64,000 bases of DNA from Acidimicrobiales bacterium (GTDB taxonomy: Bacteria > Actinomycetota > Acidimicrobiia > Acidimicrobiales > CATQHL01), in the NCBI GenBank assembly GCA_965204655.1, contig OZ241998.1:44427-108426 (forward strand), written 5' to 3'. A model generated the notes under the pieces. The model did no database searches and was not told where the DNA came from. It saw nothing but the letters and a program-made list of their open reading frames with translations. The first letter of the stretch is position 1. Each line of letters starts with the position of its first letter. A program made the translations under genes and the position numbers. Shown here piece after piece: positions 33,338 to 47,255 of this stretch.

Positions 33338-34954
33338 CTACCCACTGGTTGACCCTTCCGCTCCCTGCTTGTCGATGTTCTCAAGGACTTCGGAAACATC
33401 GGTCCACCCTTTGCCTTCGATGGGGCGTAGACAACCCCAAGCGTTGAGAGCGCAAGCAGGATCGGCTTTGAGGGCTCGCATGTTGTCTGATCCGAACCTG
33501 TCTTCTGAATTGAATCCGATGTGGAGACCGTGAAGGGCGGTGAAACTGGTTTCTCCCAGAGCGGCGACCAGGGACTCGCGTGTCAAGGAGATTCCTGCTT
33601 TTGAAATTGCGCCGAAGATTACGTCGAGCGCGTCGCACATCGACATCATCAGTACCCAGGCGTCGGTGTGGTGCCGATAGGAAAAGGGCTCGACGTCCAA
33701 GCTGTTGCGAAGGGTATGGCATCCCTGGTCCAAGCCTGTCAGCGGGTCTCCCGGTGTTCTCCAAGAACTGGCTTGGACGAGATTCACGGATTGGCGGTCG
33801 GGTGCCCTGCCCAAGATCAGACTGGCCGTCTGGATGTCGTTTACTATCCAGGTAGGAAACCAATCGATCAAGTCGGCCTTGATCATGAGGCGACGCGTAT
33901 GCGCCCAGTTGCTGTCGGACACTACGGCAGTGATTCCCCCCGCCTGCATCTGAGCGGCCATGTTCGCGTAGAAATCGTCCATAGCGGTTAGAGTTTCCAC
34001 GGCCTCTTCGCTGAGGGGTGTATCTCCGGTACCGGCTTCATAGTGCCTTTTTTGCTCTTCCAGGAGCAGGATTCGAATATCTTCGAACGCCTCAGGTATT
34101 GGAATATTGGCTTCGATTCGAAGCCCCAGACTTTCAGCAAAGGCGGCAATTTCCGCGACCTTTGCATTGGTGTTATCTGTTTCGGGGTCAGTGGGTTTGG
34201 TGTACAGGAGAGCCAATCGATCGCTCGGCCCTATTTCGCCAACGTCAGAGGCTGTTATGAGGCTGCCCTTGAATTGATACTGGCTGGAGCCGCGGTCGTC
34301 GAAGAGAAGTCCGCCTGACATGGCGAAATACTCTTCTGAGAGAGAAGAGTTGATGGACAGCGTCGGGATTCCGGCGGCTAAGGTCAGACAATTGAAGAGT
34401 ACTTCGCTCATTCGCAGTGACAGAATCATTAAGGGTTGCTGCCCGGGCAACTCCGTGCACATTCTTATGATTTCCTCTTCGGCGTTGGCAACGTCCCAAA
34501 TGTTGATCAGGGGCTCAAAACAGTTGCCGTTTACTCCGCCATGCCTGTTTATCTCGTTGATGTAGGACTGCATTATCAGGTTGAGGGGTTCTAGATCCAA
34601 GACCTCCAAGCCAATCTGGGCTAGATTTTGGAGGTCGGGCTCTATCCATGCGATTTTGAACCTTCGCTGAGAGCCCTCCTCCCCGGAGAGGGCGTCCGAG
34701 CAGTTGCCGCCGCCCATCGGGCTTCCGCCTGCTGCCCTGATTCCTTCTCCTGGTCTGGTGTCGGCCAGGGTTCCGACTTGAGCCGATGCGTCCTCGGCTG
34801 TTGGAGTTCCGCTTTCTCCAGGGGTCCCTCCGCCTCCTCCGCAGGCGGACGCTAGAAGCGAGATTGCGAGGAGACCGGCAACTAGCAGCCGGACGTTTTG
34901 GGGCGATGGTCTGCGGTTTTGGAGTTTGGGGTCTGAGCGTAAGTTGATATTCAT
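33338..34954 (-). CDS. type-1 periplasmic-binding-fold lipoprotein (LivK-like)
   Basis: Start taken at the ATG at 34954, which overlaps the upstream stop (TGATG). It has an LLASACGGGGG lipobox and YINEINRHGGVNGNCFEP, which resembles the INxxGG[IV]xG motif of LivK-family binding proteins. Confidence 0.6.
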   Translation of the reverse strand: MNINLRSDPKLQNRRPSPQNVRLLVAGLLAISLLASACGGGGGTPGESGTPTAEDASAQVGTLADTRPGEGIRAAGGSPMGGGNCSDALSGEEGSQRRFKIAWIEPDLQNLAQIGLEVLDLEPLNLIMQSYINEINRHGGVNGNCFEPLINIWDVANAEEEIIRMCTELPGQQPLMILSLRMSEVLFNCLTLAAGIPTLSINSSLSEEYFAMSGGLLFDDRGSSQYQFKGSLITASDVGEIGPSDRLALLYTKPTDPETDNTNAKVAEIAAFAESLGLRIEANIPIPEAFEDIRILLLEEQKRHYEAGTGDTPLSEEAVETLTAMDDFYANMAAQMQAGGITAVVSDSNWAHTRRLMIKADLIDWFPTWIVNDIQTASLILGRAPDRQSVNLVQASSWRTPGDPLTGLDQGCHTLRNSLDVEPFSYRHHTDAWVLMMSMCDALDVIFGAISKAGISLTRESLVAALGETSFTALHGLHIGFNSEDRFGSDNMRALKADPACALNAWGCLRPIEGKGWTDVSEVLENIDKQGAEGSTSG

Positions 34955-46763: not shown

Positions 46764-47255
46764 GTGATTTCCTCTGCACTTGTCCTGACGTCGTGCATCC
46801 TTTGGGGGGTAGCCGGAGTGTGGTTGGCGGTCGAGGATTGCCGAACTCGAAGCCTTCCCACGAAAATCATCTGGAGCGCTGCCGGAATCGTCTGGGTCTT
46901 TTACTCGGCGGCGTCTTTGATTGAGACTGATGCAAGCGGTCTGCTCGGGAGTGTCTTAGGAGGGCTCCTATGCAGTGCAGCCCTGGCGCTGGTGCACTTC
47001 CTGAACCCGGACTGGATGGGACGCGGCGACGTTCGACTTAGTGCGTTGAACGGTTTGCTGTGCGGCTGGTGGGGGTGGCAGACCGCCCTGATGGGGTTAG
47101 CAGCGGGCTTTGCGGCGGCGTTCCCCGCTGCGATCTGGGCTCTGGCTCGCGAGGGCTCAAATGCCCGTAGGCCGCTGGGGACTTACCTCGTAGCCGGCAC
47201 GGCCGCCGTCGTGACTTGGGCAGCTATCTCAGGAGGGCTGATCCCGTTCCGCTGA
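46764..47255 (+). CDS. A24-family prepilin peptidase (TadV/CpaA-like)
   Basis: Two catalytic-Asp contexts, VEDCRTRSLP and GRGDVRL, in a polytopic 163-aa protein encoded divergently from the Tad train. Confidence 0.8.
   Translation: MISSALVLTSCILWGVAGVWLAVEDCRTRSLPTKIIWSAAGIVWVFYSAASLIETDASGLLGSVLGGLLCSAALALVHFLNPDWMGRGDVRLSALNGLLCGWWGWQTALMGLAAGFAAAFPAAIWALAREGSNARRPLGTYLVAGTAAVVTWAAISGGLIPFR

Follow-up and report, generated by a model that had tools for sequence, protein, structure and literature searches.

The window analysed here, a stretch of 64,000 nucleotides (nt) from an uncultured, marine or sponge-associated, monoderm Acidimicrobiales bacterium, carries a Tad locus, and we focus on the filament machine that this locus encodes. 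The machine is probably functional and fixed in the chromosome; it is of the Tad (type IVc) pilus kind and a lineage-specific variant of a broad actinobacterial class of Tad-like operons. In favour of this reading are the complete core set of genes and the intact catalytic motifs of the motor ATPase CpaF and of the A24-family prepilin peptidase. The gene order is kept among relatives of the host and is found again on actinobacterial plasmids. An initial annotation of this DNA had described a minus-strand train encoding CpaB-like, ParA-fold, CpaF, TadB and TadC proteins, two pilins and three TadE/TadG-like proteins, and had proposed, from several parts that looked atypical, an undescribed subtype of type IV filament system. 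All of its open reading frames (ORFs) exist, and hidden Markov model (HMM) searches returned matches for most of the products. The secretin-less core set likewise agrees with a monoderm host. The proposal of an undescribed subtype did not hold: the locus reads instead as a lineage-specific variant, and several of the supposedly odd parts are ordinary in the class.

Core machinery and its relatives

The motor of the predicted machine is CpaF, in which Walker A (GGTGAGKTT), the Asp box, Walker B and the His box are all intact and which ends in a Pro-rich C-terminal tail of ~90 amino acids (aa). Of the solved structures it scores highest against Caulobacter CpaF (170 bits), ahead of an archaeal GspE-like protein (105) and FlaI (80); the match to BasE is weak (1e-23) and far under cutoff. 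More than 100 relatives of CpaF are found at 67–87% identity, the few named ones being Acidimicrobiaceae metagenome-assembled genomes (MAGs). Across the clade CpaF remains 68–87% identical where the neighbouring genes fall to 31–55%, and the protein appears to be under strong purifying selection. Adjacent paralogous platform proteins with a single T2SSF domain are a criterion for Tad systems (PMC6668835, PMC6916266), and tadB and tadC encode such a pair.

The A24 peptidase has no methyltransferase domain and its gene is divergent from cpaB, as first described. Both of its Asp motifs (LAVxD..LP and GxGDVRL) are kept in 24 relatives, the second reading GRGDVRL in the window and GFGDVRL in the relatives. 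The divergent position is kept in 25 of 28 related loci, the remaining three being cut short or without a match in that flank. The cpaB gene is the first of the operon in those relatives whose upstream flank is present, and likewise in the plasmid operons described below. Upstream of it (46660-46700, minus strand) lies TGTAGAAT, which resembles the −10-like box CTATAGAAT that occurs further down the train.

The TadZ-like protein consists of a ParA-like domain followed by a Pro-rich tail of ~230 aa; since the ParA-like domain begins at residue 1, there is no REC domain. Its Walker A position reads Y-S-[TA]-[QHE]-G-S-P-G-A-S-T-T, with neither Walker lysine in the window protein or in 24 relatives, which bears out the earlier remark on the missing P-loop lysine. 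Canonical CpaE/TadZ proteins, by contrast, carry a REC domain and bind ATP via a deviant Walker A (PMC13170226). The protein is best read as a putative nucleotide-independent scaffold.

The two pilins appear from their residues to be prepilin-like in layout, but they are not Flp pilins and lack Glu5. Pilin 1 has a leader of ~35 aa with its own hydrophobic helix, a predicted cleavage site at RG↓LALQTV, a hydrophobic α1N segment and one C-terminal Cys–Cys loop. Pilin 2 is 60% identical to it over ~95 aa and has three tandem Cys-loop repeats. The mature pilin is predicted at ~69 or ~140 aa. The long leader is probably translated, since a Shine–Dalgarno sequence precedes it and substitutions in the leader of pilin 1 are in excess at the third codon position. 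A database search, together with stop-to-stop translations from related loci, defined a pilin family of 169 clusters, all unnamed. Its members share a leader of ~35 aa with a hydrophobic helix and a conserved Pro, and a basic stretch leading to D-x-R-G. After the cleavage site come an invariant (I/L)ALQTVI, a hydrophobic helix and RGxEAV..E, and the C-terminus forms an LCEAAGFxW(x4-6)C loop; the invariant core is G-x-A-L-Q-T-V-I.

Neither window pilin belongs to a Pfam or NCBIfam family, a PDB search likewise gave no pilin family, and not one of 51 family members matches Flp_Fap, DUF4244 or TadE at a threshold as loose as E ≤ 10. There is no Flp motif (G↓XXXXEY), the pilins reading RG↓IALQTV without Glu or Tyr at +5/+6, and on this point the initial annotation was right. 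When the family is aligned by hhalign with Flp-like pilins of the plasmid class, the cleavage motifs fall in register, at a probability of 15%. Faint matches to Arch_flagellin, the archaellin N-terminus, were obtained for 24 of the 51 pilins (best E 0.004); an archaeal origin of the pilins was considered on this basis and rejected, as many unrelated transmembrane (TM) families score similarly. The Flp-like prepilin of Rhodococcus jostii RHA1 plasmid pRHL2 (locus L049, 9215-9472) also has a TM-like hydrophobic helix in its leader, ahead of DSDRG↓PSTLEYV, and a TM-containing prepilin leader, a feature of which we know no earlier description, is therefore not limited to the Acidimicrobiales family.

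Three further proteins with prepilin-like N-termini are tentatively assigned to the TadE/F/G type. Their HMM scores are weak, and there is none for the third, although their N-termini and their positions agree with the assignment. Plasmid-class counterparts of the first (38975-39451) match TadE, and positional counterparts of the TadG-like protein match PF13400 or are annotated as TadG-related; the TadG-like protein itself gives a weak tblastn match to one plasmid-class locus (L048).

A genome scan yielded 28 close loci in Acidimicrobiales MAGs, among them Ca. Aldehydirespirator, Ca. Poriferisodalis and a number of bins from sponges, and all window proteins were compared with them by tblastn; 23 of the loci were informative. 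A divergent A24 gene followed by cpaB, tadZ, cpaF, tadB, tadC, one or more pilins, tadE, tadE, tadG and the gene for a big protein (936 aa in the window) is the order in 19 of these 23. The loci span two named families, Ca. Poriferisodalaceae and Ca. Aldehydirespiratoraceae. In each of the 11 loci of sufficient length, and in two more found via the big protein, the next gene after the big one encodes a putative periplasmic-binding-protein-fold (PBP) lipoprotein (13/13). A second binding-protein gene follows the PBP gene in all 10 loci long enough to show it. Thus the synteny check that had been proposed for the 936-aa and PBP genes places both beside Tad genes across at least two Acidimicrobiales families. 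Upstream of the locus, ProX and ProRS are kept in the two closest relatives only.

In the relatives, insertions recur between tadC and the pilin, a hot spot with inserts of 0–6 kb (L001 13600-16800; L043 1961-5297; L013 13520-19705; L005, L020, L025 and L027), which encode, for example, a 333-aa Thr-rich membrane protein, or a PAP2 protein and a 760-aa protein. Locus L020 also has a partial cpaF-tadB-tadC duplication. A 2.5-kb contig binned as Spirochaetales (L019, JAKZWC010000184.1) encodes a CpaF 69% identical to that of the window, followed by tadB, and is probably a mis-binned Acidimicrobiales fragment.

Table 1. Features of the Tad locus and of the genes that follow it, in the order of the train (↓, predicted cleavage; numbers after family names are E-values)
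Feature	Position	Strand	Evidence or remark
TadV-type prepilin peptidase, A24 family, 163 aa	46764..47255	+	Peptidase_A24 1.5e-7
CpaB/RcpC-like protein, N-terminal TM and SAF domain	45738..46523	-	SAF 1.2e-6
TadZ/CpaE-like ParA-fold putative pseudo-ATPase	44162..45628	-	TIGR03815 1.6e-6, ParA 0.008 (both weak)
CpaF/TadA motor ATPase	42492..44051	-	T2SSE 6e-31
TadB-type platform protein, one T2SSF domain	41544..42440	-	T2SSF 8e-7
TadC-type platform protein, one T2SSF domain	40678..41547	-	T2SSF 5.2e-5, just under cutoff; position and homology in relatives
Pilin 1, 104 aa	40174..40488	-	GGAGG Shine–Dalgarno 7 nt before ATG
Pilin 2, 176 aa as listed	39566..40096	-	same N-terminus as pilin 1 (SG↓IALQTV)
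TadE/G-like minor pilin 1 (DARG↓EAMPVAILF)	38975..39451	-	PF13400 'Tad' 1.1e-3; conserved position
TadE-like minor pilin 2	38470..38973	-	TIGR03816 0.048; conserved position
TadG-like protein, 184 aa (DERG↓VYAPFIAII)	37916..38470	-	no family match
Intergenic gap, 151 nt	37765..37915	-	−10-like box CTATAGAAT and AGGA Shine–Dalgarno
936-aa membrane protein	34954..37764	-	no Pfam match; fold from AF2 and Foldseek
Putative type-I PBP-fold lipoprotein	33338..34954	-	lipobox LLASAC (conserved)
Second binding lipoprotein (Phosphonate-bd / SsuA-like)	32149..33399	-	PF12974 2.5e-7
BPD_transp_1 permeases (two)	31310-32143, 30333-31301	-	sulfonate/taurine/nitrate (NitT/TauT) type
ABC ATPase, NitT/TauT type	29565-30326	-	last gene of co-directional train

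Among characterised systems, the monoderm type IVc pili (Tfpc) of Bifidobacterium breve UCC2003 and Micrococcus luteus resemble the window in lacking a secretin and in combining a CpaF-type ATPase with a pair of paralogous platform proteins, with minor pilins and with TadZ, TadG or both (PMC6916266). Their pilins differ from those of the window in carrying the Flp motif and in being 44–68 residues long (PMC6916266). The window goes beyond both in having CpaB, TadZ together with TadG, an in-locus peptidase and the 936-aa protein. In Caulobacter crescentus (CpaF, CpaE, CpaB, CpaG/H), whose CpaF is the closest solved relative, CpaE forms rings around CpaF and CpaB a cage, and this arrangement is the source of our working model (PMC13170226). 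The window's TadZ-like protein has neither the REC domain nor the ATP-binding deviant Walker A of Caulobacter CpaE, and the diderm parts (the CpaC/D/I secretin complex) are absent from the locus. The best NCBIfam models for the TadZ-like protein, a TadE-like protein and the ATPase are those of the Mycobacterium tuberculosis Rv3654c-Rv3660c type (TIGR03815, TIGR03816 and TIGR03819). Scores are far under their cutoffs (208.7 versus 373 bits for CpaF against TIGR03819; 27.5 versus 154 and 13.8 versus 51 for the other two), and the window proteins are therefore not members of these equivalogs.

The 936-aa protein and a wider class of operons

The 936-aa protein is laid out as two N-terminal TM helices, a LysM-like module at residues ~262–372, a Pro-rich linker of ~200 aa and a conserved C-terminal domain. 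AF2 models of the C-terminal domain at first reached a pLDDT of 68.5 with low TM-scores, and on inclusion of remote homologues a pLDDT of 82.7 and a pTM of 0.83. The top Foldseek matches of the model were the FtsK motor, EccC, EssC and the EccC5 'DUF' domain (E 4.5e-6 to 2.5e-5, probability 1.0), at TM-scores that are modest overall (0.33–0.51), that of the EccC5 DUF domain being 0.51 on target with an rmsd of 5.0 Å. The model has the ASCE fold of the FtsK/EccC motor domain. As in EccC, EssC and FtsK, the TM helices and stalk helices precede this domain; unlike in those proteins there is one such domain rather than three or four. At the level of sequence no similarity to FtsK emerged from Pfam, NCBIfam or two PDB profile searches, and GK[ST] and an acidic Walker B are missing from every member of the family, which has SGPxxPS in place of Walker A and VVGPG in place of Walker B. 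The description 'pseudo-FtsK-like', offered in the initial annotation, is thus supported at fold level only, by the predicted model.

LysM in the window protein is not significant on its own (E 0.56 to the LysM structure of AtlA), and we infer the module, which had been called LysM-like on its letters, from remote homologues with true LysM matches. No BTAD match was found in the window protein, which ends at the pseudo-ATPase domain, and proteins of this clade lack the third TM of the remote homologues. The linker (36000-36600, minus strand, residues ~390–590) contains repeated Y-E-(P/A)-P-P units, and its composition resembles the tails of the TadZ-like protein and of CpaF; long spurious ORFs occur across it on the opposite strand and in other frames. 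Read from the translations, these are the three proteins that had been noted for long Pro-rich tails.

Between tadG and the 936-aa gene lies a gap of exactly the 151 nt first reported. Its −10-like box and AGGA are conserved in an alignment with two relatives (L001 and L002), and it probably holds its own promoter for the distal unit. The gap has no Rfam match. Two small hairpins within it were considered as a regulatory element and rejected, as they are not conserved in L002.

A search of 1.84 billion representatives with a C-terminal-domain profile retrieved 957 representative clusters. About 29 are close relatives in which the domain is C-terminal; most of the others are 900–1300 aa long and carry it centrally. 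Nine remote matches were scanned: LysM lies upstream of the domain in three and BTAD downstream in four, with one or both present in seven. The profile reaches E-values of 1e-27 to 1e-12 against LysM- and BTAD-bearing proteins, and alignment and tblastn show that homology to the big proteins of plasmids spans the N-terminal TM module as well as the pseudo-ATPase domain.

Six contexts of the big gene were examined, four metagenomic and two on RefSeq-annotated plasmids (R. jostii RHA1 pRHL2 and an Embleya plasmid). In all six the gene comes directly after SAF, tadZ-like, T2SSE, T2SSF, T2SSF, small pilin and three TadE/TadG-like genes, and is the last of the operon; its start overlaps or abuts tadG in five, with a 70-nt gap in the sixth (L046). 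The two plasmids (pRHL2, RHA1_RS40965-RS41010; Embleya sp., OG928_RS01335-RS01380) have the same ten-gene order as the window, and their components are homologous. Identity between window and class is 31–47% for CpaF and 27–33% for the big protein. The TadZ-like proteins of the class likewise lack REC and the P-loop lysine (GSSPGTSTTA, KGAPGATTT), and the pRHL2 pilin shares with those of the window a hydrophobic helix in the leader. The pilins of the plasmid class are different: some are Flp-like, with G↓ATATEYAL in L046, G↓PSTLEYV in pRHL2 and G↓VTTTEMAV in L044, and others belong to further types. The class differs also in a big protein that usually ends in BTAD and whose start overlaps tadG, in its plasmid or conjugation neighbours, and in the absence of a PBP or ABC importer after the big gene. 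The window for its part is chromosomal, with an adjacent A24 gene and Pro-rich tails on the TadZ-like, CpaF and 936-aa proteins.

On homology and shared gene order the window locus is thus placed in this broad actinobacterial class. Since gene order, degenerate TadZ and big protein all recur in the six operons, they are features of the class and not peculiarities of the window. Of the parts first listed as atypical, then, the lysine-less TadZ and the terminal big protein are ordinary, and the pilin family, the Pro-rich extensions and the PBP still stand apart. The initial annotation had also named what would count against a new subtype: identical gene order in an actinobacterial clade was indeed found (pRHL2 and the Embleya plasmid), and ordinary Flp pilins and a loss of synteny were not. 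What seems specific to the Acidimicrobiales clade, as far as the sequences go, is the pilin family without a Flp motif (RG↓IALQTVI, a disulfide loop, no Pfam family), the loss of BTAD, the Pro-rich tails, the chromosomal setting without nearby conjugation genes, and the appended PBP and NitT/TauT importer.

The big TM/LysM/FtsK-like protein looks like a standard part of Tad-like operons in actinobacteria that has gone unrecognised. It is very likely a part of the machine, because it is constant, usually translationally coupled and the last gene across a huge class. Its family, taken as a proxy for the class, occurs in 210 plasmid records, mostly from Streptomyces and Rhodococcus, in which its only annotations are 'LysM peptidoglycan-binding domain-containing protein' or 'BTAD domain-containing putative transcriptional regulator'. 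A search of the literature available to us found no paper that places a big LysM/FtsK-like protein in a Tad operon, and nothing specific on the operon class, on LysM/BTAD proteins with Tad or on Ca. Poriferisodalis. In six loci (L044-L048 and L050), Tad-like operons ending in the LysM/BTAD protein adjoin genes of the type IV secretion system (T4SS) or conjugation type, which suggests that the class as a whole may serve T4SS-type conjugative elements of actinobacteria as their pilus or mating module.

Binding lipoproteins, the importer and rival explanations

The co-directional, tightly packed train does not stop with the PBP gene at 33338 but runs to 29565, through a second binding lipoprotein, two permeases and an ABC ATPase; the importer genes are spaced 5–20 nt apart and the next gene is convergent. 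The PBP had been reported as a lipoprotein coupled to the 936-aa protein. The coupling holds, although the most likely start is the ATG at 34954 and not 35101, so that the reading frame shares one base with the stop codon at the end of the 936-aa gene. The window protein matches Peripla_BP_6 weakly (E 0.009; 16 bits versus a cutoff of 31.7), and seven of nine orthologues match the family, at best with 1.9e-9. Neither the PBP nor the second binding protein has a useful match in the PDB by sequence. Both carry lipoboxes, in the window and in the relatives. The second binding protein is a conserved neighbour, and its belonging to the Tad system is uncertain. The permeases and ABC ATPase occur in the same order in two relatives (L042 and L043) at 55–79% identity. 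In L042, the most distant member of the clade, the ABC ATPase is followed at 6734-10892 by a second set of SAF, T2SSE, T2SSF and T2SSF genes without a tadZ-like gene, and the importer block there accordingly has Tad genes on both sides.

For this distal part it is quite possible, though we lean the other way, that an ordinary Tad pilus ends with tadG or with the 936-aa gene and that the PBP and ABC importer form a separate, adjacent nutrient-uptake operon. The conserved −10-like box and Shine–Dalgarno sequence in the gap before the big gene speak for such a division, as does the importer itself, which is of a standard NitT/TauT type with its own matching binding protein. No PBP or importer follows the big gene in any of the six plasmid-class or metagenomic operons examined, and other ABC systems lie nearby in the window (ProX, 47323-48759; a sugar ABC system, 51113-54389). 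Against it, the overlap at the junction of the PBP and big genes is kept in 13 of 13 loci though PBP identity is only 31–55%, whereas the upstream flank is not conserved over equal divergence. The Peripla_BP_6 protein is an orphan to the BPD_transp_1 permeases, with no obvious transport partner, and in L042 the block is enclosed by Tad genes. A partnership of the PBP with the big protein is plausible: the two are coupled, the PBP is never missing, and it is an orphan with respect to the kind of permease. The bolder proposal would be that the Tad filament is wired to solute sensing and uptake. The PBP would report its ligand via a 936-aa protein docked on CpaF/TadZ, pilus assembly or retraction and the importer would respond jointly to a host- or particle-derived compound, and by extension the big protein would be an unrecognised core subunit of the class and the Glu5-less pilin a new family; taken as a whole, we regard this as unlikely.

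Equally improbable, in our estimate, is a filament for DNA transfer or uptake, that is, a conjugation module of a plasmid or an integrative and conjugative element domesticated for DNA uptake or cell–cell contact, with the FtsK-like domain as a relic or adaptor of DNA handling. The ancestry of the class points that way, but nothing in the window does. The remote homologous operons do adjoin genes for RepA/ParA, relaxase-related, VirB4/TraG-like and TrwB-type coupling proteins, M23 or NlpC/P60 proteins and WhiB. The nearest ATPase family is named by NCBIfam 'TadA family conjugal transfer-associated ATPase', and Tad pili of M. luteus mediate transformation (PMC6916266). The FtsK-like domain, however, lacks both Walker motifs (A and B) throughout the family and so cannot pump DNA, and no conjugation, relaxase or competence (ComEC-type) genes were found among the ORFs scanned at 20071-29555 and 47323-55406. 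The locus is flanked by housekeeping genes (IscS-like, MnmA, LigA, tRNA-Leu, ProX, ProRS and the sugar ABC system), and it is therefore chromosomal and not visibly in a mobile element. A reading as a mobile element or island was rejected on these flanks and on the G+C content, which is ~60% in the window and even across the locus.

That a Tad machine lies next to two binding proteins and an importer, in a conserved arrangement, also recalls the Sulfolobus bindosome (Bas), in which a type IV filament-like machine is genetically linked to solute-binding proteins, and a filament machine might in the same way assemble or position binding proteins on the cell surface for the importer, or serve secretion. 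Tad is derived from archaeal Epd-like systems (PMC6668835), and the faint archaellin matches of the pilins and the weak BasE match of the ATPase point in the same direction. Yet the resemblance is one of gene context: Bas binding proteins have class III (prepilin-type) signal peptides, whereas both window proteins have classical lipoboxes. The archaellin matches are weak, lie on the hydrophobic helix and stand alongside matches to many TM families, and CpaF is clearly nearer to bacterial CpaF than to the archaeal ATPases. We consider such a role very improbable.

Several points nevertheless weigh against a functional Tad pilus machine as set out at the beginning. The whole case rests on sequence. 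The pilins have neither Glu5 nor a recognised pilin family, so that cleavage by the A24 peptidase is an assumption, and the TadE/TadG calls depend on weak scores and position. The conserved −10-like box suggests a separate transcription unit from the big gene onwards. The Peripla_BP_6 protein mismatches the permease type of the adjacent importer, which has a binding protein of its own, and because of this mismatch the link of the PBP and ABC genes to the pilus could be mere conserved neighbourhood. In four of the 23 related loci the distal half lies outside the fetched flank. Finally, the topology of the 936-aa protein is ambiguous: with the third TM missing and the segment aligned to the remote fourth TM (LAGTAIGDAMLLWQLS) weak, being short and containing an Asp, the LysM-like module may be cytoplasmic.

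Proposed working and genomic setting

Assembly by the Tad machine can be pictured as follows. The A24 peptidase would cleave five prepilin-like proteins after a conserved Gly, the major pilins at D-x-R-G↓IALQTV, and CpaF, acting on a TadB/TadC platform, would drive polymerisation of the clade-specific, non-Flp pilin, whose tip-exposed part would consist of one or three disulfide-bonded loops. Around CpaF the lysine-less TadZ-like protein could serve as a nucleotide-independent scaffold, like CpaE in Caulobacter, and CpaB as an extracytoplasmic alignment cage. The 936-aa protein would be a membrane-anchored structural or regulatory subunit inherited with the operon, its cytoplasmic pseudo-ATPase domain probably docking on the motor complex; its ancestors may have exposed the LysM module to the wall. 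Changes particular to this lineage are that the big gene lost BTAD and gained its own −10-like box, and that it became translationally coupled to the PBP lipoprotein and then to the NitT/TauT-type importer. The PBP probably partners the big protein as an accessory or a sensor, and the importer would be a co-transcribed, possibly independent, nutrient-uptake module. Attachment to surfaces or to a host is the most likely role of the filament. The locus occurs in lineages that include sponge symbionts, whose way of life centres on attachment and on taking up compounds from the host.

For the Tad pili of monoderms there are only two experimental models, and how the minimal machine stays assembled is an open question (PMC6916266). 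The big protein, a membrane-anchored EccC-DUF-like pseudo-ATPase with a putative wall-binding module, would fit as a scaffold or adaptor in a monoderm without PilMNO-type alignment proteins. It is a concrete candidate for the missing scaffold of monoderm Tad machines, testable in R. jostii RHA1, and its link to Tad operons may be worth more than the window itself. The Acidimicrobiales version adds a Glu5-less pilin family, a TM-helix leader and the conserved link to a binding lipoprotein and importer.

In the remainder of the window no second Tad locus was found. An Rfam scan of 29000-48000 gave no match, and consensus scans for promoters and terminators stayed at background level. Beside the gene for tRNA-Leu (26182-26269), on the plus strand at 26317-29555, are two ORFs of 319 and 766 aa without a Pfam or NCBIfam match. 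This stretch directly after the tRNA gene has the lowest G+C of the window (0.51) and may be a small inserted islet.

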